64,000 nt of DNA from a virus (IMGVR_UViG_3300033121_002101:32001-96000), one strand, 5' to 3'. Positions 10,177 to 58,873 are shown, numbered from the stretch's first letter. Made by a program: numbers and translations. Notes: generated by a model from the sequence alone, not told the origin.

Positions 10177-10202
10177 CATTGCACAGCTACTTATGTGCAG
10201 TG
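10177..10202 (+). promoter_or_regulatory. Late-promoter-like motif CTACTTA in a hairpin loop; 3' arm contains the GTG start
   Basis: cattgcaca-gctactta-tgtgcagtg (9 bp, one G-U). Confidence 0.6.
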
Positions 10203-10589
10203 CCGTACAATTTTACATTACCTTTTAGTTTGTCTACTGGTTCAGGTGGTTATTTTGAAGTAACAAATGACGTATTGTCAGCTACTGCTTCAAATATAAG
10301 ATCTGTACTTGTAACTAATTGGGGCGAAAGGCCAATGCATTATCGCTTTGGATGCAACCTCAAAGAATTTCTATTTGAAAATAGAAGTGATCAGTTAAGA
10401 AGAAGAATAGCTGATAGAATTTTGAAGCAAATAAATGAATGGATGCCATTTATTGTAATATCTGAAATGGATATTTTGTTTTCATCAGATAATGCTTCAA
10501 TTGGTGAAAATGCTATAGGAATATATCTCGTGTTTAGATTTTCTGAAAATGAAGAACTCGCTTCGAGCATTTCATTGATTGTAGGGTGA
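10200..10589 (+). CDS. Baseplate wedge gp25-like protein
   Basis: NIRSVLVTNWGERPMHYRFGCNLKEFLFE...WMPFI; GTG 10200 start (MPYNFTLPF) preferred over TTG 10179. Confidence 0.85.
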   Translation: MPYNFTLPFSLSTGSGGYFEVTNDVLSATASNIRSVLVTNWGERPMHYRFGCNLKEFLFENRSDQLRRRIADRILKQINEWMPFIVISEMDILFSSDNASIGENAIGIYLVFRFSENEELASSISLIVG

Positions 10590-10596
10590 GGATTAA

Positions 10597-12414
10597 ATGG
10601 CTAGAAATATAGAAAAAACTAGATCTACGTCGCTTTTGAATAAAGATTTTGATTCTTTCAAAAAAGATGCGATAAGATTTATGGATGCGTATGCATCTGG
10701 AAGTATTGTAGATAAAAGCACACCATCAAGTGCAATGGTTTTAATAGAATTGATGGCTTTTATTGGAGATACACTAGCGTTTGGAATAGACCAATCATTT
10801 AATGAACTTAGAGAAGATACGTCTTCTCAAGTAGAGAACGTTGTTGAGTTTGCAAGAATGAGGGGTTATAAAGTAAAAGGAAAAACACCTGCTAGAGGAA
10901 AGCTTCCAATAATGATAGAAGTTCCTGCAGCTGTTGTTTCTGGGTCTGTTGTCCCAGATCCTCTTTATCTACCGACACTACCAAAGGGCGCGCAAGCACA
11001 ATCAAAAAATGGCGTTTTATTTGAAACACTTGAAGAAATAGACTATTCAAATTCAACTGGAAGAGATGTCACTGGATCACTTTTTAATTCAAGCGGAATT
11101 CCAACATATTTCGCTGTAAGAAAATCAGCTGAAATTATATCTGGACAAACAAAAACAGAGTCTTTTTCAATAACAGACTTTAAGCAATTTAGGACAATAG
11201 AACTGTCAGATCAGGATGTCACCGAGATCATCTCTGTTGTTGACAGCGACAACAATGAATGGGTTGAAGTGGAATACCTTGCCAACGATTGGGTGTTCAG
11301 CGCCGACTCTAATGAAACGTCTGATGCAGAAGATGTTCCATATGTTTTGAAAGTAGTAGCTGCACCCCGTAGATTCATTTCTAAATGGAATCCAGTTACA
11401 AAAAAGACGACTATTACATTTGGTTCTGGTGATGGTATTAGTTCTGATGATGAATTAATACCAAATGTCGCTGACTATTCAATACCTCTTTATGGTAAGA
11501 GAACTATTTCAAGCGTCCCAATTGATCCAAGAAACTTCTTAAAAACAAGAACACTTGGAATGAGTCCATTTAATACAACATTAACTGTTACATATAGATC
11601 TGGCGGTGGTAAAGATGGAAATGTCGAGCCGGGTTCTATAGATTCAATGGTGAAAGCTGATTTGTCTTTTGCAACAACAAATTTGGATTCTATAAAAAAA
11701 GGTGATATCGAATCATCTATACAATGTTTCAATACAGACAGAACAGATGGCGGCGCTGAAGAAGAAACTGTAAAAGAAATAAAAGCCAATTCAGCAGCAT
11801 TCTTTTCAGCTCAAGACAGATGTGTGACAAGAGATGATATGATTGCCCGTGTTCTTTCACTGCCAGCTAAATTTGGTAAGCCTGCAAAAGTTTTCGCAAA
11901 AACATCAAGACAAAATGATGGTTCTGTAGACATATATATGCTTGCAAAAAACTCTGAAGGTCATTTTATTTCTCCTTCTAACACACTGAGAAATAACGTT
12001 GCAACTTATATCAACAAGTACAGAATGCTGACTGATGGTTTTAACATTTTTAATGGAAATGTTATAAACATGAGGTGTAGATTTGGAATAGTTGTTTCTC
12101 CATCATTTAATAAAAGTGAAACAATTTCTAGATGTATAAGTGCTCTTAAAAAATATTTTGACAGTGATTTAGCACAGATTGGGCAACCAATAGTGCTGTC
12201 AAATGTTATATCAACAATTGATGATGTTGAAGGTGTCGTGTCAGTATACGAATTAAACATGACGAACGTTTTTGGTACAATTGATGGTTTACAATATTCA
12301 TCTACTAGGTTTGATTTTGAAAGTGCAACAAAAAACGGAATGATAATTTGTCCAGATAATTCTTTGATAGAATTACGTTATCCAAGAAGAGATATTGTTG
12401 GAGTTGCTAAATGA
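10597..12414 (+). CDS. Baseplate wedge gp6-like protein
   Basis: KDFDS, ARMRGYK, ITFGSGDG, GGAEEETVKEIK...AQDRCVTRDD. Confidence 0.85.
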   Translation: MARNIEKTRSTSLLNKDFDSFKKDAIRFMDAYASGSIVDKSTPSSAMVLIELMAFIGDTLAFGIDQSFNELREDTSSQVENVVEFARMRGYKVKGKTPARGKLPIMIEVPAAVVSGSVVPDPLYLPTLPKGAQAQSKNGVLFETLEEIDYSNSTGRDVTGSLFNSSGIPTYFAVRKSAEIISGQTKTESFSITDFKQFRTIELSDQDVTEIISVVDSDNNEWVEVEYLANDWVFSADSNETSDAEDVPYVLKVVAAPRRFISKWNPVTKKTTITFGSGDGISSDDELIPNVADYSIPLYGKRTISSVPIDPRNFLKTRTLGMSPFNTTLTVTYRSGGGKDGNVEPGSIDSMVKADLSFATTNLDSIKKGDIESSIQCFNTDRTDGGAEEETVKEIKANSAAFFSAQDRCVTRDDMIARVLSLPAKFGKPAKVFAKTSRQNDGSVDIYMLAKNSEGHFISPSNTLRNNVATYINKYRMLTDGFNIFNGNVINMRCRFGIVVSPSFNKSETISRCISALKKYFDSDLAQIGQPIVLSNVISTIDDVEGVVSVYELNMTNVFGTIDGLQYSSTRFDFESATKNGMIICPDNSLIELRYPRRDIVGVAK

Positions 12415-13775
12415 TATACAGAATTTATCCAGATAAAGATACATTTATATCGAATGCTGTTGTTGCAAGTGTGCAGCAAACAGGCTCAAATTATGGATAT
12501 GCTGAATCACTTGAAGTTTTTAAAATTGCTGGTGTGTCAGGTGCGCAAAGTGTGCTGTCTGGATCGCAGCTGTCAAGAATATTAATACATTTTCAGACAG
12601 CATCACTTGATAATTTCTTGTCTACAAATCCTGTTTCATCTGCTGCAAAGTCATATAGACTTTTTATGCAACATGAAACGACAGGTGATGGTTTACCACA
12701 AGCATTTACATTAAGAGTTAGAGCAGTATCTGGTTCATGGCTTGAAGGAAGAGGAATTGACACAGTAGACAGGTCTGATTATGGTGTTGCAAACTGGTGG
12801 AAATTTGATTCTTCAAATTTTTGGGTACAGAGGGGTGGAGATTGTTATGCAAGTCCAGACCTGTCTCAAACATTTGATATAGGTGATGAGAATTTAGATC
12901 TTGATGTAACAGATGCATTTAACTTATGGTCATCAGGTACAAGGAATGATGGCTTTTGTATATCACTTGCGTCTGCACATGAGAGTGACACTGTATATGA
13001 TGATTTTTACAAAAAAAGCTTTTACAGCAGACACACACAGTGGGATGAAAGAAAGCCATATGTTGAAGTTAGATGGAATGACTTCATAGGTGATGATAGA
13101 AGCAAAATGACTTGGGGAATGACAGGGTCATTGTTCTTGCATAACATAGTAGATGGACAATACACTGCATTATCAATAGGTCAATCAGCATTAATCGTTT
13201 CAATTTCAGATTTATCAGGAACAATAACAAGAGTCACAGCGTCTGCAACACAACTTGTTGGAATATACAGCGCAAGCATTTGCCTACCAAGTGCATCATA
13301 TTCAGGTTCAATTTTTTATGACTCATGGGGTTCTGGTTCATTTGCTTTTATGACAGGCTCTTTTACTTTTAAAAGTAAAACAGCGTATAAATCTTCTCAA
13401 ACGCAACAGTATACAGTAAACGTACCGAACATTAGAGAATTTTATGATGCTGAAGAAGTAGTTAGATTCAACGTCAACATAAGAAGCAGGTCATATAGAC
13501 AAGGTGTTGTTGCAACTGCATCACTTAGAGTTACACCAGATATTGTAGAAAAATGCTACTATTCTATAGAAAATGAGTCTACTAGAAGAAAAGTCATTCC
13601 TTTTGGCACAGGTTCACAACAGCATACAAGACTTTCGTATGATGAAAATGGAAACTATTTCATGTTTCCAATGACAAATTTACATTCAGGTGAAGTTTAT
13701 AGATTATATGTTTTAGTTGACAGGGATGGCCAGAGACAAATTATCGATTGCAATTCTAAATTTAGGGTAAAATGA
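12411..13775 (+). CDS. Baseplate-associated structural protein
   Basis: KDTFI/SRILIHF/W.EG.G/F.SR...P pattern (DNRLRE-like); position in baseplate cluster. Confidence 0.6.
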   Translation: MIYRIYPDKDTFISNAVVASVQQTGSNYGYAESLEVFKIAGVSGAQSVLSGSQLSRILIHFQTASLDNFLSTNPVSSAAKSYRLFMQHETTGDGLPQAFTLRVRAVSGSWLEGRGIDTVDRSDYGVANWWKFDSSNFWVQRGGDCYASPDLSQTFDIGDENLDLDVTDAFNLWSSGTRNDGFCISLASAHESDTVYDDFYKKSFYSRHTQWDERKPYVEVRWNDFIGDDRSKMTWGMTGSLFLHNIVDGQYTALSIGQSALIVSISDLSGTITRVTASATQLVGIYSASICLPSASYSGSIFYDSWGSGSFAFMTGSFTFKSKTAYKSSQTQQYTVNVPNIREFYDAEEVVRFNVNIRSRSYRQGVVATASLRVTPDIVEKCYYSIENESTRRKVIPFGTGSQQHTRLSYDENGNYFMFPMTNLHSGEVYRLYVLVDRDGQRQIIDCNSKFRVK

Positions 13776-18595: not shown

Positions 18596-18618
18596 ATGTA
18601 TAGCAAGATATATAATCT

Positions 18619-25845: not shown

Positions 25846-25852
25846 CTAAATA
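25846..25852 (+). promoter_or_regulatory. Candidate late promoter CTAAATA
   Basis: Matches the T4-type late box core; same as 35675. Confidence 0.5.
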
Positions 25853-35660: not shown

Positions 35661-35695
35661 ACATTCCTATGATACTAAATATATGATAGGAGTGT
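35661..35695 (+). promoter_or_regulatory. Late-promoter-like motif CTAAATA in a hairpin loop; 3' arm contains the SD
   Basis: acattcctat-g-ata-ctaaata-tat-g-ataggagtgt. Confidence 0.65.
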
Positions 35696-35699: not shown

Positions 35700-36137
35700 A
35701 TGCAAGAAGAATTACACGGTTTCGAGGTATACGGAAACCGCTATGAAAGAAAAGAAGATACAGTTGCAGTACTTCTGCAGTGTTTTAATGAGCTTAATAC
35801 AGTAACGAATCCAGATCATCCTGGGATTAATAACGTTTCTGGAAAGTTCATTTGCAAAAGACAAGGTGATAATGTTTTACTTGAATATCACCTGATGGAA
35901 CTTCATCTTGATGATCCGACAAGGTGTGAATCTTTTGTAAAAGAATGTGATTCAGCTGTCAAGAAAATGGCAAAAAAGCTGAAATCTGCATTTAAAAAAG
36001 CAACAAAATCTGCGTTAACACTTAAAGACAACAATAAGTCTGGATGGCATAGAGAGCAAGTTTCTCTTAATGGTCGTTGGTACTTACGAGTATGGAGAAA
36101 CTATTCTGTTAGCCCAAGTGTTACAGAGGATGAGTGA
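35700..36137 (+). CDS. Hypothetical protein preceding terminase
   Basis: SD AGGAG and upstream late-motif hairpin. Confidence 0.7.
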   Translation: MQEELHGFEVYGNRYERKEDTVAVLLQCFNELNTVTNPDHPGINNVSGKFICKRQGDNVLLEYHLMELHLDDPTRCESFVKECDSAVKKMAKKLKSAFKKATKSALTLKDNNKSGWHREQVSLNGRWYLRVWRNYSVSPSVTEDE

Positions 36138-36140: not shown

Positions 36141-37883
36141 GTGTCTGTTTCTGGTGACTCTTCAAAAAAGAAGAGGACATATCAAAAAGCTAAGATAAGA
36201 GAAGAAATAGTATCTTGTGGAAGAAACCCGAAGTACTTTATAAACAAGTACGTAAAAATCAAACACCCAACAAGAGGTATAGTACCTTTTAGTCTTTGGG
36301 ATTTTCAAAAAAATTTAATTGACAACTACATGGAACACAGATTCAATGTAGTTTTAAAAGCAAGACAACTCGGAGCAACAGAAACGACACAAGCATTTTG
36401 TTTGTGGATGTTGCTGTTTTATAGAAACAAGAACATTCTTTGTATCGCAACTAAAGCAGAAACAGCTAAAAATATCATTAAAAGAGTAAGAACAGCTTAT
36501 TCGAATTTACCTGCTTGGTTGAAAGTTTCAAAAGTTGTCGTAGACAACAAGATGTCATTAGAATTTGATAATGGCTCTGTTATAAAAGCAATTGCATCAT
36601 CAGATGACGCAGGTAGATCAGAAGCTGTTTCTCTGCTTCTTGTAGACGAGGCTGCGTTTATTAAAAATTTAGATACTCTTTGGACTGGCTTATTACCAAC
36701 AGTAAGCGCTGGTGGTAGAGTAATAATGATTAGTACTCCAAATGGAGTTGGCAACGTATTTCACAAGACATTTACAGAAGCACACTCAAAGAAAAATGAG
36801 TTTCATGCAAATATTTTGTATTGGTGGTTTCATCCAGAACACATAGAAGATCTAGAAGAAGACCCGAATAGAAAAGGTACAGTCTTCGGAAACAGATATA
36901 AAACGTCTACATGGTTCAGAAATGAAACAAAAAACATGTCAGATAGAGATAAAGCTCAAGAGCATGATCTTGACTTTTTATCATCTGGCGATACGTTTAT
37001 TGGAAAAACAGGAATAGAATACGTTGAATCTACAGCTATAGATCCTGTTTTTGTTGAAAATGAAGATGGCGGACTTTACATTTGGTCTACACCAACTTCA
37101 AAAACAAAAAAATATTTTGTGTCTGCAGACGTTGCTAGAGGAGATGGAGACGACAACGGTGGATTTCATGTCTTTGAAACAGAAGATATGATGCAAGCAG
37201 CTGAATATAATGGCAAATTAAAAGTAGACGAATTCACTAAACTTATGTGTGATACTGCTTTTAGATATAACAAAGCAGTTGTCATTGTTGAGAATAACTC
37301 ACTTGGTTTAGCTGTACTGGAAAGTGTTAGAAAATGGACACATCCAGAAATGCCAGGCAGAATTGGGTATCCAAACGTATACTGTACTGTAAGAGGAGAG
37401 ACAGAAAAGGGTGAATGTGTAGACAGTTCAGATGATATTCCTGATAGACTCATACTGGGATTTTCAACTACTTCAAAAACAAGACCACTTATTCTCAATA
37501 AGCTTGAAGAATACATTAGAACGAAACAAGCAACATTTCGTTCTAAGAGATACTATAATGAACTGACAACATTTATATGGCGTGATGGCAGACCAGAAGC
37601 TATAAGTGGAGCAACTGACGACTTGATATTGTCAAGTGCAATAGGTGTATACGTAAGAGATATTACATTGGCTCCAGGATTTAATTCTGGAGAGATGCAA
37701 AAAGCAATGATAGCCGCTTCTCAGTTCAACAAGATAACGAATAACCAAATTGAAGGTGCTTCAAAAAATCCAACATTTGTACCGAGACAAGCATTGGGAT
37801 CTTTCTTTAGACAGAAGGATACATATAGGATACCAATGGGTAGAGGTATACTTGATTTGAGATCACTTTTGAAGGAAGAATGA
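36141..37883 (+). CDS. gp17: Terminase large subunit
   Basis: KARQLG Walker A region, LLLVDEAAF Walker B, STPNG, ADVARGDG, DDLIL nuclease motifs. Confidence 0.95.
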   Translation: MSVSGDSSKKKRTYQKAKIREEIVSCGRNPKYFINKYVKIKHPTRGIVPFSLWDFQKNLIDNYMEHRFNVVLKARQLGATETTQAFCLWMLLFYRNKNILCIATKAETAKNIIKRVRTAYSNLPAWLKVSKVVVDNKMSLEFDNGSVIKAIASSDDAGRSEAVSLLLVDEAAFIKNLDTLWTGLLPTVSAGGRVIMISTPNGVGNVFHKTFTEAHSKKNEFHANILYWWFHPEHIEDLEEDPNRKGTVFGNRYKTSTWFRNETKNMSDRDKAQEHDLDFLSSGDTFIGKTGIEYVESTAIDPVFVENEDGGLYIWSTPTSKTKKYFVSADVARGDGDDNGGFHVFETEDMMQAAEYNGKLKVDEFTKLMCDTAFRYNKAVVIVENNSLGLAVLESVRKWTHPEMPGRIGYPNVYCTVRGETEKGECVDSSDDIPDRLILGFSTTSKTRPLILNKLEEYIRTKQATFRSKRYYNELTTFIWRDGRPEAISGATDDLILSSAIGVYVRDITLAPGFNSGEMQKAMIAASQFNKITNNQIEGASKNPTFVPRQALGSFFRQKDTYRIPMGRGILDLRSLLKEE

Positions 37884-37886: not shown

Positions 37887-39755
37887 ATGAGTGATAAAGA
37901 AAATATATGGCGTAAGCTAACACGCTTGTTTAGAAGCGGACCAGTTGTACGCCATAAAATTTCACGAGCTGAACCTATTGTTGAGCCGATTGGAACTGCT
38001 CGTGCATATCGTAAACAAGTATCATCTCTTTATGTTAACAGTCAAGCTGGCTTCGGACAGTACGAAAGACTGTCAAGATACAGTGATTATCATGAAATGA
38101 CATTCACACCAGAATTGTCATCTGGTCTTGACATTTATGCAGATGAGATTTGTGCAACTGACGAAAATGCTCAGATAATAAAGATACACTCAAAAGACAA
38201 TGAAATAAAAAGCATACTTGAAACTCTATTCTTTGACATAATAGACATCAACTTCAATATCTGGAGTTGGGCAAGAAACATGTGCAAAAATGGAGATTTT
38301 GTTTTATTCATAGATGCAAATGAAGACAACGGCATTTTGAACTTAATGCCTATTCCTATTAATGAAATAGAGCGTGAAGAAGGCTTTGATAAAGATGACC
38401 CGTTTGCTGTTAGATACAGATGGCTTTCTAACAACAACATGAAACTTGAAAACTGGCAAATAATTCACTTTAGATTGCTTGGTGATGATTCGACATTGCC
38501 ATACGGAACATCGATATTAGAACCTGCAAGACGCATTTGGAGACAGCTTGTTCTTATAGAAGACGCAATGTTAGTCTATAGAATTGTAAGATCTCCAGAA
38601 CGCAGAAAATTTAAGATTCCAGTTGGAAACATACCGCCAGAAGAAGTTCCACGTTTCATAGAAGAATTCGCTTCAGAGATGAAGCGCAATAGAATCGTTG
38701 ATCCAACAACTGGTAGAGTTGATTTAAGATACAACGCTTTGTCTGTTGACGAAGATTACTTCTTACCAATGAGAGGTGATGTTGGCCCAGATATTGATAC
38801 ACTTCCGGGTGGTCAGTTTACTGGTGACATCGATGACGTTCAATACATACAAGCTAAGCTTTTTGCAGCAATAAAAATCCCAAGAGCGTATCTTGGATAC
38901 GATCAGGATGTTGGAAGCAAAGCAACACTTGCACAAGAAGATGTAAGATTCGCAAAAACAATAGAAAGAATACAAAAGATAGTAATTGCAGAACTTAATA
39001 AAATTGCAATTATTCATTTGTTTTTAATGGGATATAGAGGAGAAGATCTTACAAACTTCTCTATAACAATGTCTGCACCATCACATATCGCTGAGCAACA
39101 AAAGCTTGAACTGTGGAGATCAAGATTTGAAGTTGCTGGTATGGCGCAAGAAGGTATGTTTGATCGTGATACAGTTCGTAAAAGAATTTTCAATCTTAAT
39201 GATGTAGAAATAGAAGATATTAAAGAAGGACAAAAAAGAGATAAGCTTTTTGATTCTACAATTGAAGGAATTCAAGCGCCAGGGCCAAGCAATAGTGCTC
39301 CTGGTAAAGAAGGTGAAGGAGAAGTTGTTCCTGGAACTCCACTTGATGCTGCTCCTGGCGCAGATGAATTACCGAAAACTCTTGGTGGTGAAGAACCTGG
39401 CCCAGTCAATGCATCATTTGAATTGCATGGACAAACGATCGCAGAAGACGAAAACCCTGGTTCTGAAGGTGATGACGCGTTTATATCAACAAATAAAGGA
39501 AAAGATTTATTTTCGACGCATGATGATCTTTACACGACAGTTTTCGGCACTGAAAAGCAAACTGCAAGTGATCCGTATGATTCAAGAGCAATGTCTAGAT
39601 TAATATCAAAACCTTTCTCTGAAGAAAAAGAAAATGAGTGGCAGAATATTGTTTCAGAAGGATTTGAAGATTTAGAAGAAACTCTTAAAAAAATTACATC
39701 TTCTGGCTTACCTAAAAAAAGAGCAACTCCCAGAAGCAAGAAACTACTTAAGTGA
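37887..39755 (+). CDS. gp20: Portal protein with acidic C-terminal extension
   Basis: EDAMLVYRIVRSPERR, EDYFLPMRG, IDTLPGG, EDVRFAKTIERIQ. Confidence 0.95.
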   Translation: MSDKENIWRKLTRLFRSGPVVRHKISRAEPIVEPIGTARAYRKQVSSLYVNSQAGFGQYERLSRYSDYHEMTFTPELSSGLDIYADEICATDENAQIIKIHSKDNEIKSILETLFFDIIDINFNIWSWARNMCKNGDFVLFIDANEDNGILNLMPIPINEIEREEGFDKDDPFAVRYRWLSNNNMKLENWQIIHFRLLGDDSTLPYGTSILEPARRIWRQLVLIEDAMLVYRIVRSPERRKFKIPVGNIPPEEVPRFIEEFASEMKRNRIVDPTTGRVDLRYNALSVDEDYFLPMRGDVGPDIDTLPGGQFTGDIDDVQYIQAKLFAAIKIPRAYLGYDQDVGSKATLAQEDVRFAKTIERIQKIVIAELNKIAIIHLFLMGYRGEDLTNFSITMSAPSHIAEQQKLELWRSRFEVAGMAQEGMFDRDTVRKRIFNLNDVEIEDIKEGQKRDKLFDSTIEGIQAPGPSNSAPGKEGEGEVVPGTPLDAAPGADELPKTLGGEEPGPVNASFELHGQTIAEDENPGSEGDDAFISTNKGKDLFSTHDDLYTTVFGTEKQTASDPYDSRAMSRLISKPFSEEKENEWQNIVSEGFEDLEETLKKITSSGLPKKRATPRSKKLLK

Positions 39756-43331: not shown

Positions 43332-43366
43332 TAGTTTCGTTATTCATCCATATATGCAGTGAAGAC

Positions 43367-43695: not shown

Positions 43696-43702
43696 CTACT
43701 TA
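43696..43702 (+). promoter_or_regulatory. Candidate late promoter CTACTTA upstream of scaffold/MCP
   Basis: Identical to the motif at 10187; intergenic; precedes SD GAGG. Confidence 0.5.
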
Positions 43703-44792: not shown

Positions 44793-46481
44793 ATGGGTCT
44801 CAACGTACTGAACGAGCAGCTCACAGAGGGGCTCGTCGAGCGCAACATGATAAAAGAGTCAAAGAGATTAGTAGAAAAGTGGTCAAAGACTGGTCTACTC
44901 GCAGGAAACATCAGCGAAGGTCGCAAGGCAACACTTGCGAGACTGATGGAAAACCAAGCAGGCTGGCTTCTGAAAGAAGCGAACGTTCAAGCTGATATTA
45001 TCGGCTTCCAAAACGTTGCTTTCCCAATGATTAGACGTGTATTCGGTGGGCTCATCGCAAATGAGCTTGTCGGTGTACAACCGATGTCATTACCATCAGG
45101 ACTCATCTTCTACATGGACTATCGCTATGACACTGTAAAGGCTGGTAACACAGCAGATGACTTTGCAGTTGGTTCAAGCGTGTTCGGTACAAGACAGAAC
45201 CTGCAATCGCAAGATGGTGCTGGCGCGTTCTACAACTTGGGTGGAACTTCTTTCTCACAACGTGAACGCGTATCGACAGCCACATTCTCAGGTTCATGGT
45301 CAACTCCAAACATGGGAGATATTGATCACGATCCAGATCTTTCAGGTTCATTCTCAGCTTTAAGGAAGTTGACACTGACATCTGCATACTCAATCCTGCA
45401 AGGATCGGGTTCTCTTTACGGAACGGCTGACCTTAAGCAGTGGGTACCACTGTCTGGTACATCAACGTCGTTTACATCGACAAGTGATGGTACACCAGTA
45501 GCTGTTGGTGCAACAACAACAGACGTTGCAAAGGTTTACAGACGCTTTACAAAAGTATCTGGTAACGATCTTGTGTTTATCGTTTCAGGTTCTGCTGCAA
45601 CACTTGGAAACATTGCTGGTAATACAGCACTCAAGGTTTCATACCTTGTAGGTGCTACACTGACAGGTGGTACATCAGGTACAATGGTACTTGACCCATA
45701 TGAGTCAGACATGGCAGCTTCGCCAACACCACAAATTCCAGAACTTGACTTTAGAATTCAGAGTGAAGCTGTTACAGCTCAGTCAAGAAAACTGAAAGCT
45801 AAGTGGACCCCAGAGCTTGCTCAGGACCTCGCAGCTTACCAGAACCTTGACGCAGAAGTAGAGCTCACAACTCTGATGTCAGAGCAAGTTGCTCTTGAAA
45901 TCGATCGTGAAATTCTGCAAGATATTCTTGTTGGTGCAACTGGCGCACGCATGTACTGGTCACGTAAGCCAGGTAACTTTGTTGATAAGAACACTGGTGC
46001 TGCTCTCACAGGCACATCATTCACAGGTAACGTACAAGATTGGTACTCAACTCTCGTTGAGAGATGTATTGATGCTGGAAACGCTATCCACAACAAGACA
46101 CTGCGTGGAACTGCAAACTTCCTGGTATGTAACCCAGTTGTTTGCACAATCCTTGAGTTCACACTCGCATTCAAGGCGCAAATGTCGCTCGATCCAAAGG
46201 AGTCTACTTTCACAGTAGGTGCTGAAAAGGCTGGTAGCTTGTCAAACAAGTATACAGTTTATAAGGACCCATACTTCCCAAAGAGCAAGATTCTGATTGG
46301 ATATAAGGGAACTGGATATCTTGAAGTTGGTTATATCTACGCTCCATATGTGCCACTGATTGTAACACCAACAATCTATGCACCAGAAGACGGTACACCA
46401 CGCAAGATGATGATGACGAGATATGCTAAGAAGATGGTTCGCTCTGACTTCTATGCAACAATCACTGTAATGGACCTCTGA
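44793..46481 (+). CDS. gp23: Major capsid protein
   Basis: KWSKTGLL, VQPMSLPSGLIFY, SRKLKAKWTPELAQDL, EIDREI, YAPYVPL, MTRY. Confidence 0.97.
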   Translation: MGLNVLNEQLTEGLVERNMIKESKRLVEKWSKTGLLAGNISEGRKATLARLMENQAGWLLKEANVQADIIGFQNVAFPMIRRVFGGLIANELVGVQPMSLPSGLIFYMDYRYDTVKAGNTADDFAVGSSVFGTRQNLQSQDGAGAFYNLGGTSFSQRERVSTATFSGSWSTPNMGDIDHDPDLSGSFSALRKLTLTSAYSILQGSGSLYGTADLKQWVPLSGTSTSFTSTSDGTPVAVGATTTDVAKVYRRFTKVSGNDLVFIVSGSAATLGNIAGNTALKVSYLVGATLTGGTSGTMVLDPYESDMAASPTPQIPELDFRIQSEAVTAQSRKLKAKWTPELAQDLAAYQNLDAEVELTTLMSEQVALEIDREILQDILVGATGARMYWSRKPGNFVDKNTGAALTGTSFTGNVQDWYSTLVERCIDAGNAIHNKTLRGTANFLVCNPVVCTILEFTLAFKAQMSLDPKESTFTVGAEKAGSLSNKYTVYKDPYFPKSKILIGYKGTGYLEVGYIYAPYVPLIVTPTIYAPEDGTPRKMMMTRYAKKMVRSDFYATITVMDL

Positions 46482-46507: not shown

Positions 46508-46544
46508 ATGGCAACCAACGGAAGTTGGTTGCCATTGTGTTATT
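46508..46544 (+). terminator. Intrinsic terminator after major capsid gene
   Basis: Perfect 12-bp stem atggcaaccaac/gttggttgccat with GGAA (GNRA) loop, then a T-rich tract. Confidence 0.8.
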
Positions 46545-47814: not shown

Positions 47815-47858
47815 AAAGGCCAATCATTAGCGAATAATTAAGCTAATGATTGGCCTTT
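47815..47858 (+). promoter_or_regulatory. Perfect 17-bp hairpin with ATAATTA in the loop; 3' arm contains ATG 47846
   Basis: aaaggccaatcattagc-gaataattaa-gctaatgattggccttt. Confidence 0.75.
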
Positions 47859-50569
47859 CTGCTATTGATAAGAGACTGCAAGAGTCATTTGGAATCAAGA
47901 AAAACATTGATGAAGTGACTGTTGGCAATATGGTTAGATTGATGGGAATCCCTGAAACAGATGCTATTAGATTACATTCACTTTATGGCAACTCAAATGT
48001 AATCGCAGAAGCATATAAAGTTTATTACGATTTTTACAAAAAAAATCAAATATCTGATCAAGTGTTCATGTATTTGCTTTCTAATTTTGTAAAGCAATAT
48101 AAAAACTTACTCGAAGAAATGAGAGAATTCTTCAAAAGATTCCCAAAAGAAGAATTAATATTCGTTAAAAGAATAAAAAACAAAGAGTTTACAGATGTTG
48201 ATGATTTGTTTTCTGCGTTTAAACATTTAAGCATTGAAAAACAGTATAGAAAGCCAAACTTACCAGTTGTATTGTCGTTTGATGATGGATTTAGATGGGT
48301 CTTATTAAGGAATCAAAAAGACTGTGATGATGAGGGTATCTTGATGAAGCACTGCGGAGGAGCACATGGAACAATGTATTCTCTCAGAGATTCAAATGAT
48401 AAGCCACACGTCACTGCAGACGTAGAATATTTGGGTAATGAAGACTGGAAAAACATGATTTCTCAACTTAGAGGAAGAGCAAACACACAACCAAAAGAAC
48501 AATATACTGCTTACATTGTCGCGTTTGCTAAAAAAATGAATGCAATTTTATATGACAAAGAACTTGATAAAGAATATAAAAAAAATATAAACTTAAAAGC
48601 TTTCTTTGATAAGAAAATAGACAATGATTCGTTAACTGAAATGACTGTAGGAAATATGGTCAGGTTAATGAAAATTCAAGAAAAAGATGCTAAAATATTG
48701 TATTCTGCTTTTGGAAATTCAAACATAGCACCTGTAATGTATAAGCTTTATATCAGTGCATTTCAAAATTACGATGACAGTGATGACTCTTTTAGTATGG
48801 CTGATAACTTTATTAAGCAATACAGTAAAACAGTTGAAGAAATGAAAGAGTTCTTTAAAAGATTTCCAAAAATAGAATCTTCTTTTATAAAGAAGATACA
48901 AAGCGAAGAAATAACTGAAATTTCAGAATTTATATATCAATTTAAGCATTTAGAATCTGAAAAAATACCACAGAAAAATCATGAAAAATTATTAAGTTTT
49001 GAAGATGGTTATAGTTGGGTTTTGATAGACGATGAAAAAGGATGTAGAGATGAAGGAGGTTTAATGAAACACTGTGGACAAGCAGTTGGTAAAATGCTCT
49101 CACTGAGAGATGAATATAACAAACCGCATGTAACAGTTGATCTTATACCAAGAAGCAAAATAAGGAGATCAGATGAGCTTGACAAGTTCAAAGATATAAT
49201 ACATCAACTCAGAGGATATGCAAATTCAATACCAAAACAAAAATATTTTGGTAAAATTATTGCTTTGATGAAAAAAGTAAATGCACCAATAACAGATAAA
49301 ATGGTTAAAGGTGAAATTGTACATGCTTTAAATTTAAAAGCTCTTGGATTTGATTATCCAAAAGATTTAGAAGAATGGGATGAAGAATACTTTGGAGACA
49401 ACGATGACATGATTGACAATGAGTCAGTTGTTCATGAAGCTCCGACAAAAAAAGATTCTCCTGCAATAACAGCTCAGAGAAATTTGCCAAGAGAAATTGT
49501 TAATGCAATAACTTCACAGTCTACTTTAAGACAAACAGTTTGGTCGCTTTCACATCTGCCAAAAGGAACACAATCTGCTCGTTTAATTCGCTACATGGAA
49601 GATAAAGGTTGGAGATCTTTTACAGTAAATGGTAAAAAGCTTTTCTATCATGCTAGAACTTATAAACTAAGAGAGCCAGTAAAGTCAGTTCCGCAAACTC
49701 TATACGGCATCTATTCTCTTCTGAAACCACTTGAACAAGATGACATGGGAAGAGAAATGGTTGATTTAAAGCTGCAAAAGCTTTGGGGAATCAGAGAAAT
49801 ACCAGGGTCTAGCGGAATGGAATTTGTGCAGTCTTCTGTTCCATCTGAAAGACTTCTTAGATATCTTACATCTGTTGCTCCTAATGCAAACGAATTAGCT
49901 GATCAGCTATACAGACATACTGGAATATCAATTGAGCCAATAACTTCTACAATGGAAATTGGTACGCCAGTAGATTACAAAAACGCTTCAAGAACTGATT
50001 TACCGGACGGTGTGTTACCAGAAGATATTATTGTAATTGCAGAAGGTGGGTCAATGTATTCACTTCTTGCAAAAAACTTTACCGCAGGTGTAGTTCATGA
50101 TTCGAGTGCAGTTATTGATTCAGGATCTATAAAAGTACAAGGAAAACAAGACCCAACACCAAGTTCTGCACGTGGAGAACCGTCAGCGTCTGGTCTTGGA
50201 AAAGACTGGGAAGATTTAAGAAGCAAATATGGAATGAACAAAAATAAAGATTTTGGAAAAGAAAATTTTGATGATGTTCAAGAAGACAATGTAAAAATTG
50301 TTGGCACAGGATTTCTTTGGAGAGTTTATAAAAAAGCAAAAGAATCAAATGTTCAGTCAATATTCTTGGTCCAAGAAGGATCAAAATCGATCGATACAAT
50401 GAGAGCTTCACTTAGCTACTCACGCGGCGGAATATACGATGAAAATGTTAGAGTTGCAAGAAATATAAGAAAAACGGGTGGGCTTCCAATAAGAGCTGGA
50501 AAGTGGGAAACAGAAGATCTTGGCAAGTATCTAAGAATGTTTCACAGAGATTATGGAACCACGCTGTGA
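47846..50569 (+). CDS. Multidomain protein with two tandem PcfJ-like domains
   Basis: Two copies of EG.LMKHCG...SLRD..KPHVT...QLRG.AN..P. Confidence 0.75.
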   Translation: MIGLSAIDKRLQESFGIKKNIDEVTVGNMVRLMGIPETDAIRLHSLYGNSNVIAEAYKVYYDFYKKNQISDQVFMYLLSNFVKQYKNLLEEMREFFKRFPKEELIFVKRIKNKEFTDVDDLFSAFKHLSIEKQYRKPNLPVVLSFDDGFRWVLLRNQKDCDDEGILMKHCGGAHGTMYSLRDSNDKPHVTADVEYLGNEDWKNMISQLRGRANTQPKEQYTAYIVAFAKKMNAILYDKELDKEYKKNINLKAFFDKKIDNDSLTEMTVGNMVRLMKIQEKDAKILYSAFGNSNIAPVMYKLYISAFQNYDDSDDSFSMADNFIKQYSKTVEEMKEFFKRFPKIESSFIKKIQSEEITEISEFIYQFKHLESEKIPQKNHEKLLSFEDGYSWVLIDDEKGCRDEGGLMKHCGQAVGKMLSLRDEYNKPHVTVDLIPRSKIRRSDELDKFKDIIHQLRGYANSIPKQKYFGKIIALMKKVNAPITDKMVKGEIVHALNLKALGFDYPKDLEEWDEEYFGDNDDMIDNESVVHEAPTKKDSPAITAQRNLPREIVNAITSQSTLRQTVWSLSHLPKGTQSARLIRYMEDKGWRSFTVNGKKLFYHARTYKLREPVKSVPQTLYGIYSLLKPLEQDDMGREMVDLKLQKLWGIREIPGSSGMEFVQSSVPSERLLRYLTSVAPNANELADQLYRHTGISIEPITSTMEIGTPVDYKNASRTDLPDGVLPEDIIVIAEGGSMYSLLAKNFTAGVVHDSSAVIDSGSIKVQGKQDPTPSSARGEPSASGLGKDWEDLRSKYGMNKNKDFGKENFDDVQEDNVKIVGTGFLWRVYKKAKESNVQSIFLVQEGSKSIDTMRASLSYSRGGIYDENVRVARNIRKTGGLPIRAGKWETEDLGKYLRMFHRDYGTTL
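47915..49345 (+). repeat. Internal tandem duplication, period 726 bp (242 aa)
   Basis: TVGNMVRLM units start at 47915 and 48641; both end NLKA. Confidence 0.9.
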
Positions 50570-50574: not shown

Positions 50575-50581
50575 ATACTTA
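50575..50581 (+). promoter_or_regulatory. Candidate late promoter ATACTTA
   Basis: Intergenic, within short hairpin agtaa-tac-ttact. Confidence 0.45.
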
Positions 50582-54225: not shown

Positions 54226-54245
54226 GGCTTTTGCGAACTCTTGCT
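54210..54245 (+). terminator. Possible intrinsic terminator
   Basis: Stem agttcgca/tgcgaact followed by a pyrimidine-rich tract. Confidence 0.35.
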
Positions 54246-54247
54246 CT

Positions 54248-54254
54248 ATAGTTA
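54248..54254 (+). promoter_or_regulatory. Candidate late promoter ATAGTTA upstream of sheath
   Basis: Within hairpin ttgctcta-tagt-tagagacaa. Confidence 0.45.
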
Positions 54255-54302
54255 GAGACAACCTAGTGTTTTGTTTTTTATATTTGAGAGTGAGAATAAG
54301 AG

Positions 54303-56669
54303 ATGTCAAATACGTTTAGTTCACCCTCTGTTTCTGCCAACGAAATAGATCAGTCATTTAGCGCAACAGAAGGACCATCAAATGGTGCTGCACTTGTTGG
54401 TACTACACCAAAAGGTCCAGCTTTTAAACCTGTTGTTGTTAGAAAATTTGATGAATTTAGGCAAGTGTTTGGAGAACTTGATCCAGCACATCCGCTTACA
54501 TTCGCTGCATTTAACTATTTAAAGAACGGAAGTTCTCTAAGAGTTATTAGAGTTCTTGGTAACGATGACGGAACGTCAACTCAAACTGGATACAACGTCG
54601 ACGGAATTGTCGGCATTTCAGATGTAAGTGGAGCAATTGGTGCAACTGGATCAATTCTTGCTGAAATACACTATTCTGGAACAAAACCAACAGTCGTTGG
54701 TGTAGCTTCTGACGCAAACAGGTTTGTTATTTCATTTGGAAGCGTATTCTCAGCAACAGCTTCATTCCAAACAAGTTCAGCTGACTATATTGGAAAAGTT
54801 CTTAATACCGATCCAACGAAATATTCAACGTATTACCACTATGTCTCTTCAGTTTACAAGTATCAGCCGCAAGCAGCTTCTGCTTCATGGTGGTCTGTAA
54901 GTACGCTATCAGCATCATGGAAAACATTTGATCGTGACCACGAGCAAGGACAAACACCATGGTTCAAGTCACAATTGCTTGGTGGACAGGAATTTGATTT
55001 ATTCAAACTGTTTACGCGTGCAGATGGCCGTTCAACAAATGACGACGTAAAAGTTACAATCGCAAATGTTAGACCGTCTGCAAATCCAACAATTTATCCG
55101 TACGGCACATTTGATTTAGCAGTTAGAGATTTCAATGATTCAGATACAAGGCCAGTTGTTCTTGAGTCATTCACTGGATTGAACTTCGATCCAGATGATA
55201 GAAACTACATTCTAAGAAAAATTGGAGATGTTAACGAAACATTCTCAGATACAGAGAGAAAGTTCCAAGTAACTGATGGATCTTGGCCGGGTTCACCTGG
55301 TTCAAGATACATTAGAGTTAAACTTTCAGATTCTAACTTCCCAGCAGAAGCTCTTCCGTGGGGACACAGAGGATTTCCGAAGTTACTCTATTCTGGCTCT
55401 GCTGGTACAACAGGTGCAGGTGGACAGAACAAAGTTCCAGATCTGATTTACAATGCATTCCAACGTGATTCGCAAGGTAATCCAAATGATTTAGTTTGTT
55501 TCGGAGTACTCTTCGTTTCTGGCGGTGTTGCAGACAGAATGAGAGCATTCCCAGATATCCCAACAAGTGATGCTGCAATGACAGGATCAGATGCTGGCTT
55601 CTCACTCAAGGGACTTACATCATTCAGTGACAATGGAACTACACGCTGGTATTGGTCATCTGCTGGTACAGCATATCAGCCACTTTATGCATCTGGTTCT
55701 GTACAGAAGTTCACAGTTCCATTCTACGGTGGATTTGATGGGTGGGATTTAAGAGTTCAAAACCCAATCGGCCAGTGGACATTAACAAATGATGCGCTTG
55801 AAGCTTCAAGCATTGGTGTTGTATCTCTTAAGAGAGCAATCGATGTAATTCGCAATCCAGACTTACTTGACATGAACGTTCTTGCAATACCGGGTGTTCA
55901 CAACAAGAGAGTTACAGATTATGCACGTTCGATGGCGAATGAACGCAAAGATGTTCTCTACATCGTCGATGTTACAGGTTCAACTGTTTCTGAAGTTGAG
56001 TCTGCATTGACAGCTCGTGAGATTGATGACAACTACGCAGCATGCTATTATCCAGACGTAAAGCAAGAGCACCCAAATGTTCCAGGAAGACTAGTAAGAG
56101 TTCCAGCTTCAGTCGCTGCTATTGCTGCTATTGGTTACACAGATAGAGTTGCGCAACCATTCTTTGCACCAGCTGGTATGAATCGTGGTGGTTTAACAGA
56201 CAACTTTGGAATTAAAGATGTTGTTGACAGACTTGATTTCAAGGATCGCGATAGACTTTATGATGCAAGAATTAACCCAATTGGTACGTTTACAAAAGAA
56301 GGCGTTGTAATCTACGGACAAAAGACGCTGCAAGCAAGACCAAGTGCTCTTGATAGAGTAAATGTAAGAAGACTGCTTATTCTTGCAAAGAAGAGCGTTC
56401 TGCAAGAAGCAAAAGAATTACTGTTTGAACCGAACAATGCAGGAACATGGACACGCTTTGTCAACAAGGTAAATCCAATACTTGACCGTATTAGACGTGA
56501 CCAGGGAATCGAGCGCTTCCGTGTAGTGATGGATTCTACGACAAATACACCAGACATAATCGATCGTAATGCAATGTACGGAAAAATCATACTCCAACCA
56601 ACAAAAGCAGTTGAGTTTGTATCAATTGACTTTGTAATAACAAATGCTGGAGTTGCTTTCGGTAGCTGA
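54303..56669 (+). CDS. gp18: Tail sheath protein
   Basis: SPSV...EIDQS, GPAFKP, FAPAGMNRG, LYDARINPI, LDRVNVRRLL. Confidence 0.95.
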   Translation: MSNTFSSPSVSANEIDQSFSATEGPSNGAALVGTTPKGPAFKPVVVRKFDEFRQVFGELDPAHPLTFAAFNYLKNGSSLRVIRVLGNDDGTSTQTGYNVDGIVGISDVSGAIGATGSILAEIHYSGTKPTVVGVASDANRFVISFGSVFSATASFQTSSADYIGKVLNTDPTKYSTYYHYVSSVYKYQPQAASASWWSVSTLSASWKTFDRDHEQGQTPWFKSQLLGGQEFDLFKLFTRADGRSTNDDVKVTIANVRPSANPTIYPYGTFDLAVRDFNDSDTRPVVLESFTGLNFDPDDRNYILRKIGDVNETFSDTERKFQVTDGSWPGSPGSRYIRVKLSDSNFPAEALPWGHRGFPKLLYSGSAGTTGAGGQNKVPDLIYNAFQRDSQGNPNDLVCFGVLFVSGGVADRMRAFPDIPTSDAAMTGSDAGFSLKGLTSFSDNGTTRWYWSSAGTAYQPLYASGSVQKFTVPFYGGFDGWDLRVQNPIGQWTLTNDALEASSIGVVSLKRAIDVIRNPDLLDMNVLAIPGVHNKRVTDYARSMANERKDVLYIVDVTGSTVSEVESALTAREIDDNYAACYYPDVKQEHPNVPGRLVRVPASVAAIAAIGYTDRVAQPFFAPAGMNRGGLTDNFGIKDVVDRLDFKDRDRLYDARINPIGTFTKEGVVIYGQKTLQARPSALDRVNVRRLLILAKKSVLQEAKELLFEPNNAGTWTRFVNKVNPILDRIRRDQGIERFRVVMDSTTNTPDIIDRNAMYGKIILQPTKAVEFVSIDFVITNAGVAFGS

Positions 56670-56678
56670 TAGGTTTTT

Positions 56679-57140
56679 ATGAATAAAGCTTGGAAAATAT
56701 TAGAAGCATCTTTTGGATTGGGTAAGTTTGGAGATTATAGGTTTGATCAAGATTTAGAAGATCTGCCTTCAAAATCTCCAATGAGAATGTCAAGAAATGA
56801 TCAATATCATAATGACTACACTGATTCAAATGATAAAAAAAGTAGAAGAGATCATTTAGTTGGATCACCAAAAATAGGAGAAGAAAAATCAGCGAATTGT
56901 CCTATGTGCGGATCTGAAACTAATTCTGACTTAGGCGAAGCAGTTGGCGGAATGGACACATTTGATATTGGTGCTGGAGTTTCTGGGACAGATCCAACTG
57001 CATTAGATGAGCCAATCAAGCTTACAATTGGAAAGAAACAATTATCATTTACAGCAGATGACATGGTTGAACTTATCAAAAGCGGTGAGCTGCAAAAAAT
57101 GATACAAGCTAGAAAGATTAGAAAACTTCCAGGAGTGTGA
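56679..57140 (+). CDS. Hypothetical protein with AW..L.E-type leader
   Basis: MNKAWKILE; CPMC. Confidence 0.7.
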   Translation: MNKAWKILEASFGLGKFGDYRFDQDLEDLPSKSPMRMSRNDQYHNDYTDSNDKKSRRDHLVGSPKIGEEKSANCPMCGSETNSDLGEAVGGMDTFDIGAGVSGTDPTALDEPIKLTIGKKQLSFTADDMVELIKSGELQKMIQARKIRKLPGV

Positions 57141-57628
57141 TTTCAATGAAAAGCGCTTGGCATTTGCTTTATGAAACATTAAGCACGGGTACAACTAGAG
57201 TTTTCAGAGGAACAAACAGTAGTAAAGATCAGCTTGATATTACTCACAGTGGCGGATCTGATTACGGTCCTGGTTTGTACTTTGCTACAAGTGTAGAAGA
57301 TGCAAAAATTTATGGTTACAGAATAGAACAGTATGATGTAATTGTGAATAATCCTATACACGTTGGTGAAAATGAAAATTTAGAACTGATTGAAAAATTA
57401 ATGAAAGTTCTAAAAATAGATGAAGAGATGATGATTGAAGGAAAAAACTGGTTGCAGCTGATGTCATTGGTTGGTGTATTAGTCGAAATCGGTCAGTTGT
57501 CATGGAAGAGTTTCATGAATTACTTGAAGAAATTGGGTTATGATGGAATTTATGTTCACAAACCTAAAAATGCTGCAGGCGAGTACATAGCTGTTTTTGA
57601 TAAATCACAAGTTAGTCCAGTAGTGTGA
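57137..57628 (+). CDS. ADP-ribosyltransferase-like (ART-PolyVal-like) protein
   Basis: VFRGT, YGPGLYFA, A..YG, NP, GYDGI, EYIAVFDKSQV. Confidence 0.7.
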   Translation: MISMKSAWHLLYETLSTGTTRVFRGTNSSKDQLDITHSGGSDYGPGLYFATSVEDAKIYGYRIEQYDVIVNNPIHVGENENLELIEKLMKVLKIDEEMMIEGKNWLQLMSLVGVLVEIGQLSWKSFMNYLKKLGYDGIYVHKPKNAAGEYIAVFDKSQVSPVV

Positions 57629-57668
57629 TTCACTTTAGTCTACCACATACTATTAAATCACCATGACC

Positions 57669-57675
57669 CTAGTTA
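57669..57675 (+). promoter_or_regulatory. Candidate late promoter CTAGTTA upstream of tube
   Basis: Intergenic; flanked by tgac/gtca. Confidence 0.45.
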
Positions 57676-57725
57676 TCGTCAGAGCAGCTGATTGCTCATA
57701 TTAATGACTTAAATAGGAGAGTGAG

Positions 57726-58214
57726 ATGGCAGAGATACTTGAAACCCAGCAACTGCTGGCTAATACATACGAAGCTAAGCGTAAATTTCGCTGGATCCTT
57801 CAAATTGATGGAGTAGATGCGTTTGTTTTGAAAACGTGCCAACGCCCTCAGCAGACATTTGAAGAAACAGTTATTGATTATATCAATACTAAAAGATACC
57901 TGTCAGGAAAGGGCGCTTGGAATCCAATTTCAATTACGATGAATGATCCAATTGCTCCGTCTGCAGCGCAGAAAGTGATGAACTGGGTAAGACTAAACTA
58001 CGAACCGCTTACAGGAAGAATGGGTTACGCAGTACAATATAAGAAAGATATTTCATTAAAGATACTTGATCCAGCTGGTGTCGTTGTTGAACTTTGGGAT
58101 TTGATAGGTTGTTGGGTACAAGATTCAAACTTTGGTGACTTAGACTATTCTTCAAGTGATAACCTTGAAATCACAGCGACAATACGTTTTGACAATGCAA
58201 CACTGCAATTCTGA
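57726..58214 (+). CDS. gp19: Tail tube protein
   Basis: EAKRKFRW, W..I.IT..DPI.PS, YKKDI, W.L.G, GDLDY. Confidence 0.9.
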   Translation: MAEILETQQLLANTYEAKRKFRWILQIDGVDAFVLKTCQRPQQTFEETVIDYINTKRYLSGKGAWNPISITMNDPIAPSAAQKVMNWVRLNYEPLTGRMGYAVQYKKDISLKILDPAGVVVELWDLIGCWVQDSNFGDLDYSSSDNLEITATIRFDNATLQF

Positions 58215-58220
58215 GGTATT

Positions 58221-58823
58221 ATGAAAGTTAGTGTAAAAAAAGCATTTCGGATATCTGAGGGTGTTGATGACGGTGACAAAGGAGCTGCACTTGATGCAAT
58301 TGGAGAACTCGAAGGTATAGCAGAGTCTTATAACAACGGAGAATACGCAAGTAGTTCAGAACTTGGAAGAGAACTTGTTAGCTGGTTTAAAACAAATGTT
58401 GATACGATTTTTGCTGCTCTTGGCATTGAAATGGCAAAAGATGAAGCTAAAAAACCACCTTTAGGATCTGGTGATAGGTTTCGTAATTTAACAAATCAAC
58501 TTGCAAATGAAGGAAAACCAAAAGCAAAAGAAGTTGACAAGTCACAAGAAGATGATGCCGAAGATAAAAGCAATGACAGTCAATTGCCAGATGATGTGAC
58601 TCAACAGATACGTGACTTAATTGATGCGTTAGAAAGAATAGTACCTGATGAAAATCCTGAAGGTGATGAAGCAGATACTGTGTTAGATGATGAACCGATT
58701 GGTGACGTTGAAGAAGAAGCTCATGATCCAGCAGCACTTGCTGCGTGGATAGGAAGAGAAAAGTACGGTAATAAAAGATTTCAAAAGTTAGCAATATCAG
58801 GTAAACGACGTTCAAATCACTGA
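58221..58823 (+). CDS. Hypothetical acidic/basic protein (probable internal head protein)
   Basis: KKAFRISE leader, acidic linker, C-terminal DPAALAAWIGREKYG. Confidence 0.65.
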   Translation: MKVSVKKAFRISEGVDDGDKGAALDAIGELEGIAESYNNGEYASSSELGRELVSWFKTNVDTIFAALGIEMAKDEAKKPPLGSGDRFRNLTNQLANEGKPKAKEVDKSQEDDAEDKSNDSQLPDDVTQQIRDLIDALERIVPDENPEGDEADTVLDDEPIGDVEEEAHDPAALAAWIGREKYGNKRFQKLAISGKRRSNH

Positions 58824-58840
58824 TACAAGAATTTTTGTTG

Positions 58841-58873
58841 GCTAACATACCTACCTAATTGTAGTATGTTAGC
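58841..58873 (+). promoter_or_regulatory. Perfect 10-bp hairpin with CTAATTG in the loop; 3' arm contains ATG 58866
   Basis: gctaacatac-ctacctaattgta-gtatgttagc. Confidence 0.65.

Follow-up and report, generated by a model that had tools for sequence, protein, structure and literature searches.

Promoter words nested in start-hiding hairpins: a probable T4-type translational switch at a subset of genes in an uncultured, distantly T4-like phage

Late promoters of bacteriophage T4 are read by the late sigma factor gp55 together with gp33 and gp45. The promoter word is short, i.e., TATAAATA at -13 to -6 in T4 and CTAAATA at -12 to -6 in Aeromonas phage Aeh1 (Nolan et al., PMC1524935). At certain genes it is combined with a hairpin, and this logic has been documented for T4 e (lysozyme), soc, I-TevI/II/III and segB and for Aeh1 mobE (PMC2988022, PMC3014915). 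The reviewed cases are all late genes carried on long polycistronic RNAs, and at least nine or ten are listed for T4-type phages (PMC2988022). Hairpins of another kind, which act as enhancers in split translation initiation regions (TIRs), are described for T4 genes 25 and 38 (Nivinskas 1999; Malys and Nivinskas 2009, as cited in PMC3014915). Here, we analyze hairpins that resemble the former kind in a stretch of viral DNA of 64,000 nucleotides (nt) from IMGVR_UViG_3300033121_002101. This stretch (hereafter, the window) corresponds to bases 32001-96000 of a 196,531-base pair (bp) IMG/VR virus record that is about 96% complete. An initial annotation of the window had proposed that the T4 logic is used here.

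The four hairpins that had been singled out as clear were found by direct reading of the sequence where the initial annotation placed them (Table 1). RNA folding was compared with 200 dinucleotide shuffles per site, and the native fold was better at all four sites (z of -3.30, -4.41, -7.72 and -4.43 at sites 1-4); the numbers of shuffles that folded equally well were 1, 0, 0 and 0. The folding energies are -14.8, -16.3, -30.1 and -18.0 kcal/mol, respectively, and the 17-bp perfect repeat of hairpin 3 was reported independently by an inverted-repeat scan. Every loop holds a word of the form [C/A]TANNTA (the loops of hairpins 1 and 3 are GCTACTTA and GAATAATTAA). As had been claimed, the 3' arm buries either the start codon (GTG 10200, ATG 47846 and ATG 58866 at sites 1, 3 and 4) or, at site 2, the Shine-Dalgarno (SD) sequence AGGAG (35688-35692). 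The GTG was confirmed as the start of the gp25-like gene, whose product aligns with two orthologues residue 1 to residue 1. The arm sequences have nothing in common between sites. Two of the proposed words had to be adjusted. At site 4, CTACCTA fits the family and CTAATTG does not; at site 3, ATAATTA is indeed present in the loop, but only as a relaxed variant with A for C at position 1.

We also scanned the whole genome, on both strands and independently of the initial list, for all perfect hairpins of at least 9 bp with a loop of at least 7 nt. The scan returned 374 hairpins, 14 of which have their 3' arm over a translation start and 360 of which lie elsewhere. A strict form of the word (CTANNTA or NTAAATA) occurs in the loop of 4 of the 14 and in none of the 360 (Fisher p = 1.2e-6), i.e., the proposed link between a motif in the loop and a start in the 3' arm is highly non-random. 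The confirmed units are four in the window and, together with three outside it, seven in the genome.

Table 1. Positions of the hairpin units, other promoter-word sites and genes. Positions are counted from the first nucleotide of the window unless marked as genome positions; aa, amino acids.
Feature	Position	Strand	Description
Hairpin 1	10177-10202	+	Arms 10177-10185 / 10194-10202, loop 10186-10193; 9 bp including one G-U
Motif CTACTTA	10187-10193	+	Loop of hairpin 1; predicted transcript start near 10199
gp25-like baseplate wedge gene	10200-10589	+	PHROG baseplate wedge; GTG start, without SD
Hairpin 2	35661-35695	+	Arms 35661-35670 / 35686-35695, 10 bp; 3 inner pairs, 35672-74 with 35682-84
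Motif CTAAATA	35675-35681	+	Loop of hairpin 2; predicted transcript start 35687/35688, just 5' of SD
145-aa gene, putative small terminase (TerS-like)	35700-36137	+	Assigned by position directly 5' of the large terminase (TerL) gene
Hairpin 3	47815-47858	+	Perfect 17-bp arms 47815-47831 / 47842-47858, loop of 10 nt
Relaxed motif ATAATTA	47834-47840	+	Loop of hairpin 3; predicted transcript start at the A of ATG 47846
907-aa accessory gene	47846-50569	+	Without SD; ATG 47846 is the first start codon in frame
Hairpin 4	58841-58873	+	Perfect 10-bp arms 58841-58850 / 58864-58873
Motif CTACCTA	58851-58857	+	Loop of hairpin 4; predicted transcript start near 58863
101-aa gene	58866-59171	+	Between tail tube region and 1402-aa gene; without SD
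Unit outside window	genome 17860-17945		-37 kcal/mol, z -7.5; SD and AUG both paired
Unit outside window	genome 153994		z -5.0; without SD
Unit outside window	genome 155510		z -3.5; without SD
CTAAATA, no hairpin	25846-25852	+	18 nt before ATG 25871, SD present; fold z +0.79; cross-start pairing p = 0.89
CTACTTA, no significant hairpin	43696-43702	+	22 nt before ATG 43725, SD present; fold z +0.93; cross-start pairing p = 0.25
Sigma-70-family sigma factor gene, divergent, 226 aa	7825-8505	+	Candidate reader of the motif, from family matches and predicted structure
Baseplate wedge proteins	10200-12414	+	PHROG matches
TerL	36141-37883	+	PHROG match
Portal	37887-39755	+	PHROG match
Major capsid protein	44793-46481	+	PHROG match
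Intrinsic terminator after major capsid gene	46508-46535	+	12-bp stem, GGAA loop, T-rich tail; context, outside the hairpin unit
Tail sheath	54303-56669	+	PHROG match
Tail tube	57726-58214	+	PHROG match

A translational switch of the T4 e/soc/I-TevI type, with the promoter inside the hairpin, is probably the best explanation of these units. A short phage-specific promoter word would lie in the hairpin loop or at the edge of the 5' arm. RNA started upstream would hold both arms and fold, so that the SD, the start codon or both would be hidden and the gene would stay silent on read-through messages. RNA from the internal promoter would begin some 6 nt past the word, beyond the 5' arm; it could therefore not form the hairpin and would be translated. 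The outcome would be that translation is tied to each gene's own promoter. The genes under such a switch would be those for the gp25-like baseplate protein and the putative small terminase, two accessory genes of the window and three genes elsewhere in the genome. We infer each of the steps, i.e., the promoter role of the word, the transcript starts, the upstream read-through and the block of translation by folding.

When the published spacing (-12/-13 to -6) is applied to the four words, the predicted transcript starts all fall 3' of the 5' arms (Table 1), and the late RNAs would therefore be open. Partition-function folding of RNA that begins 90 nt upstream gave mean unpaired probabilities for SD plus start codon of 0.00, 0.32, 0.00 and 0.00 at sites 1-4; for RNA that begins at the predicted start, the values were 0.59, 0.79, 0.63 and 0.29. 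Overall, predicted accessibility is 0.00-0.32 in read-through RNA versus 0.29-0.99 in late RNA, and at motif sites free of hairpins it changes little between the modelled long and short RNAs. The neighboring genes are all co-directional with the hairpin sites, and in the terminator scan, neither the stretch from the sigma gene to site 1 nor the DNA immediately 5' of sites 3 and 4 contained a terminator-like site. The initial annotation had placed units downstream of probable early or middle blocks. This part stands for site 1: the block before it is non-structural (sugar-nucleotide enzymes and the sigma factor), no terminator intervenes, and the arrangement fits silencing of non-late read-through. 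It is less certain for sites 2-4, whose upstream genes may themselves be late; there, the switch would couple translation to a gene's own promoter instead of keeping early and late apart. Translational coupling as an opener of the hairpins was rejected, as 10-31 nt separate the upstream stop codons from the 5' arms.

The same hairpins might be viewed as RNA processing or stability elements (RNase III-type sites or protective 3' hairpins), whose cleavage would free the translation start and which would lie beside promoters only because both occupy the few intergenic gaps (4.7% of the genome). Their location shortly after upstream stop codons would agree with this, as would the perfect helix of site 3, which is long enough for a double-strand RNase substrate, and a 15-bp hairpin without a promoter word at genome 188679-188713, outside the window, which spans a stop/start gene junction. 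We consider a processing role unlikely, however, given that the 3' arms lie exactly over the SD or start codon and not anywhere in the gap, that the motif in the loop is confined to hairpins covering translation starts, and that, in small terminase orthologues, it is specifically the translation start with which the promoter's 5' flank still pairs (see below). None of the hairpins has a U-tract or was called terminator-like. Intrinsic terminators were rejected likewise: the terminator scan detected the one after the major capsid gene and none of the four hairpins, whose 3' flanks lack T runs.

Support for a promoter role of the word comes from its identity and its conservation. TAAATA is the most enriched hexamer in the intergenic DNA of this genome, and the variants of the [C/A]TANNTA family found here are CTAAATA, CTACTTA, CTACCTA, ATAATTA and ATAAATA, with exactly CTAAATA at two sites of the window. 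In DNA of relatives (80 contigs fetched around the portal gene and 38 around gp25), CTA-NN-TA recurs in dozens of contigs, 15-40 nt before orthologues of the TerS-like, post-portal, scaffold-position and gp25 genes, as CTACTTA, CTATTTA, CTAATTA, CTAGTTA or CTACCTA. CTACTTA precedes gp25, TerS and other late genes, CTACCTA the TerS orthologue of contig L010, and CTAATTA is a variant in closer relatives. In A/T-rich relatives at a greater distance, the TerS promoter position is taken by ATATTTA or ATAATTA (the latter, e.g., in L047, L052 and L076), which validates the relaxed word of site 3. The designation as a late-promoter motif is supported by a match to the published T4 and Aeh1 promoters (PMC1524935) and by retention before late genes in relatives.

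If the word were instead a signal for translation or another RNA function, such as an A/U-rich enhancer, the hairpins would be constitutive attenuators on all transcripts. The word is always within about 40 nt of a start codon (3-9 nt in the class lacking an SD), and 60% of the genes have no strong SD, so that non-SD initiation signals must exist. Yet G+C-rich relatives keep the exact CTA..TA word at variable distances (8 to 23 nt) from the SD, and an enhancer locked in a loop next to a buried start codon makes little sense. In addition, the word equals known late promoters, and in genes with an SD, the SD begins 6-9 nt after the word, as expected if the transcript starts just 5' of it. On these grounds, an enhancer role is improbable.

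The relatives also allow a covariation-type check, which the initial annotation had suggested. For each site, a 33-nt flank reaching 3 nt into the motif was paired with RNA that spans the predicted transcript start to gene position +12, and the pairing was set against that of 500-1000 shuffles of the flank (significant at p < 0.05; p values combined by Fisher's method). Among all motif sites of this genome, 5/16 were significant (combined p = 1.2e-7), i.e., site 2 (p = 0.019), sites 3 and 4 (both p <= 0.001) and the units at genome 153994 and 155510. At the TerS orthologue, cross-start pairing was significant in 7/13 independent closer relatives in addition to this phage (combined p = 2.6e-7), and the arm sequences are entirely different in each lineage; pairing was thus kept while the sequence turned over completely. 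Post-portal gene promoters gave 3/11 (combined p = 0.012), other promoter sites 0/5 (p = 0.96), and the TerS orthologue in more distant relatives 0/24 (p = 0.99), the last of which indicates that the test is not biased. Pairing maintained by differing arms in closer relatives, together with its absence in distant ones, indicates that the hairpin of the TerS gene is a selected, clade-specific feature. The motif of relatives is now in the loop and now in the 5' arm, and what stays constant is pairing with the SD or start.

These observations also bear on the possibility, raised in the initial annotation, that the palindromes act as DNA, i.e., as extruded hairpins or cruciforms, or as operators flanking the promoter, and modulate recognition by the sigma factor. 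The strongest stems here are perfect Watson-Crick palindromes that could form equally well in DNA, and at sites 1, 3 and 4, sense RNA folds with nearly the same energy as antisense RNA. Such a role is nevertheless quite improbable: arms that differ at every site make a common binding protein implausible, the shifting location of the motif in relatives leaves pairing with the SD or start as the constant, and T4-type late promoters need no secondary structure (PMC1524935). Stems of the relatives hold G-U pairs, and sense RNA is on average 1.7 kcal/mol more stable than antisense RNA (Wilcoxon p = 0.07); these two observations lean towards an RNA-level role without settling it.

For site 1 alone, an arrangement like that of T4 gene 25 has to be weighed, in which a hairpin brings a distant SD near the start and enhances translation. 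The gene is a gp25 homologue, T4 gene 25 uses such a hairpin (PMC3014915), and a purine run, AAGAAAG, lies just 5' of the 5' arm of hairpin 1. However, GTG 10200 is paired within the stem and does not follow it, AAGAAAG poorly resembles the GGAG-type SDs of other genes in this genome, and no GGAG-type SD is present upstream. Orthologues of gp25 have either the motif 5-9 nt before a start without SD or an SD inside the 3' arm, and the split arrangement has been reported for close T-even phages only (PMC3014915). A split ribosome binding site at site 1 is accordingly very unlikely, and we rejected this candidate in favor of the promoter-in-hairpin switch.

Within that switch, the units without SD (sites 1, 3 and 4 and genome 153994 and 155510), which are the strongest ones, deserve separate consideration. 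Their start codons follow the word by 3-8 nt, giving predicted leaders of 0-3 nt (1-4 nt in some); at genome 155510, the predicted transcript start is just past the AUG. A start codon about where the transcript should begin suggests leaderless late mRNAs, which are known from other systems as messages with a 5'-terminal AUG, e.g., lambda cI from PRM and many mycobacterial genes (PMC4633059). The hairpin's 3' arm would then be the very 5' end of the coding sequence, and read-through RNA would be doubly silent, having no SD and a paired start codon. Additional support comes from gp25 orthologues, in which the word lies either 5-9 nt before a start without SD (6 lineages) or 15-18 nt before a start with SD (6 lineages), with none between. 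A distance of 5-6 nt separates the motif end from the start at 10200, 47846 and genome 17278 and 154017, as well as in the relatives L109, L130, L017, L036 and G001; a peak of the motif-to-ATG distance at 5-6 nt across all loci is suggestive, but based on too few counts. Small counts, the fact that one start is GTG, and the general scarcity of strong SDs (missing in 60% of genes) weaken the leaderless reading. From these spacings, we propose only tentatively that a subset of the clade's late genes may be expressed from leaderless or near-leaderless mRNAs. A limited literature search turned up no account of leaderless late mRNAs for T4-type phages, and the proposal, if true, would represent a new coupling of late transcription to translation in these phages.

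Two side observations concern SD usage and spacing. A strong SD (duplex energy <= -5 kcal/mol) occurs in 88/277 genes and essentially none in 167, as judged with a generic anti-SD; few strong SDs hint that SD pairing matters little to the phage or its host. In L036 (about 6810-6900), the TerS orthologue of a distant relative is preceded by a 15-bp perfect hairpin upstream of ATATTTA, and only 5 nt separate this word from the ATG, a further spacing of the leaderless type.

A candidate reader of the word is encoded about 1.7 kb upstream of the baseplate module (Table 1). In its family, 10/32 homologues match Pfam Sigma70_r2 (best E-value 1.7e-5), and the family profile has weak matches to SigA and to T4 gp55 (chain 7d7c_F). 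The AF2 structural model has a pLDDT of 89, and the top Foldseek matches in PDB are almost all sigma factors. A weak match was obtained to phrog_234 (late sigma; E-value 0.004), whereas T4 gp55 as a direct query, phrog_12791 and a PHROG scan of the open reading frame gave no match. Two helical domains in the model indicate that this protein is not a plain gp55 orthologue. Conserved copies of the gene, annotated as hypothetical only, occur in many uncultured contigs as well as in Flavobacterium phage immuto and Microcystis phage Mel-JY01. For the clade, [C/A]TANNTA offers a working late-promoter word and this gene a candidate sigma factor, which may aid annotation of transcription units in metagenomic phage genomes.

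Several observations weigh against a T4-type switch or narrow its reach. The word has five fixed bases only and is weakly informative in DNA of 35% G+C, and site 3 carries just its relaxed form. Genes upstream of sites 2-4 may be late themselves, so early-versus-late discrimination there is unproven. A strong SD is absent from about 60% of the genes in any case, and hairpins of gp25 orthologues are weak or absent, those without SD having z of -0.6 to -1.5. The sigma factor is a two-domain protein (the second domain sigma-4-like) with a low hhalign probability to gp55, and a search for the gp45 C-terminal family gave no match. Moreover, 11/16 candidate promoter sites tested in the genome are without a significant hairpin. 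The initial annotation had seen weaker stems around five more motifs, and these are no better than chance (z of -0.62 at 18608, +0.09 at 43350, +1.04 at 50575, -0.89 at 54248 and -0.25 at 57669). Its view that the unit is used repeatedly holds for the four window sites, or seven units genome-wide, but not the generality that this implied, as the good motif sites 25846 and 43696 have no hairpin; nor is repeated use as unusual as it was thought to be, since at least nine or ten T4-type cases have been reviewed. When perfect stems were profiled around all gene starts, 3' arms were only about 2-fold enriched there, and hairpins at starts are therefore not a genome-wide habit. The hairpin unit is real but confined to a subset of genes.

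The regulated genes differ in what can be said of them. The putative small terminase has no family match of its own; orthologues of 120-150 aa hold the same position in relatives. The 907-aa protein has two homologues (644 and 661 aa) that are 96-97% identical and share its N-terminus, and contains an internal duplication of about 250 residues that is missing from both. It shows only a faint PcfJ-like Pfam match. No clear homologue was found in five related phage records (one weak partial match, E-value 3e-4), and scans of viral, metagenome and genome collections gave no match to the DNA of the near-identical homologues. For the 101-aa gene, there was neither a family match nor a homologue in the five related records. 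Neither Pfam nor PHROG assigned a function to the hairpin-regulated accessory genes, and the idea that the regulated genes are homing endonucleases found no support in these searches; mobile-element ends around the 907-aa gene were dropped as a candidate, there being no flanking repeats.

All real genes of the window are on the + strand. The major capsid protein is at most 36-42% identical to that of any cultured phage, the nearest by this measure being Flavobacterium phage immuto, Microcystis phage Mel-JY01 and Rhodothermus RM378, and portal proteins of 50-80% identity are present on hundreds of uncultured contigs; the phage thus appears to be a deep-branching, uncultured, distantly T4-like one. 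Directly before the sigma gene, positions 533-7211 (+ strand) hold an island of sugar-nucleotide enzymes (epimerase, glycosyltransferase, methyltransferase, UDP-glucose dehydrogenase, 5'-nucleotidase and PfkB kinase). The capsid terminator is followed by TATAAT 2 nt before ATG 46552, which opens four small genes (111, 107, 88 and 99 aa) upstream of hairpin 3. Several portal homologues of 970-1040 aa contain an intein and HNH endonuclease domains (PF14890, PF13392) within the portal. In L092 (relative G003), what follows the tail tube gene is a cluster of tRNA-like sequences and a methyltransferase-like open reading frame; the two genes (200 and 101 aa) that this phage has there are missing, and synteny breaks exactly at site 4.

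The logic of the switch and its repeated use are already established; novelty lies in the lineage, in the promoter word and the genes under its control, and in the evidence for conservation. A late promoter nested in a start-hiding hairpin would thus not be peculiar to coliphage T4 and its homing endonuclease genes. The device appears to be used, under selection, in a deep-branching uncultured T4-like clade, including at a core packaging gene with complete sequence turnover.

As at T4 e, soc and I-TevI and Aeh1 mobE, a stable hairpin is predicted to hide the ribosome binding site on transcripts started upstream, the late promoter word is short, A/T-rich and located within the hairpin or at its side, late transcripts are predicted to lack the 5' arm, and the genes belong to long transcription units that are co-directional. 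Accessory genes follow the hairpin in two of the four window cases, which recalls the homing endonuclease genes of T4. Unlike in T4, the phage is only distantly related (capsid <=42% identical to any cultured phage), the word is CTANNTA/ATAAATA, the sigma factor does not appear to be a clear gp55 orthologue, and the regulated genes include a baseplate gene and a putative small terminase conserved in the sub-clade. Most units here, in contrast to the T4 cases, bury a start codon without SD, at the predicted transcript start. As a class, the words resemble T4-type late promoters in being A/T-rich, 7-8 nt long, without an evident -35 element and located before orthologues of late structural genes; they differ in that the two middle positions are free (AA, CT, CC, TT, AT, GT) and that both the promoter role and the cognate sigma factor are deduced. 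The units without SD are like leaderless mRNAs in having the start codon where, by spacing only, transcription should begin, and unlike them in that some predicted leaders are 1-4 nt rather than 0 and one start is GTG. Finally, site 1 shares with the split TIRs of T4 genes 25 and 38 a hairpin at the start of a gp25 homologue, but, with its start codon in the stem and no good SD upstream, this hairpin should inhibit translation rather than enhance it.

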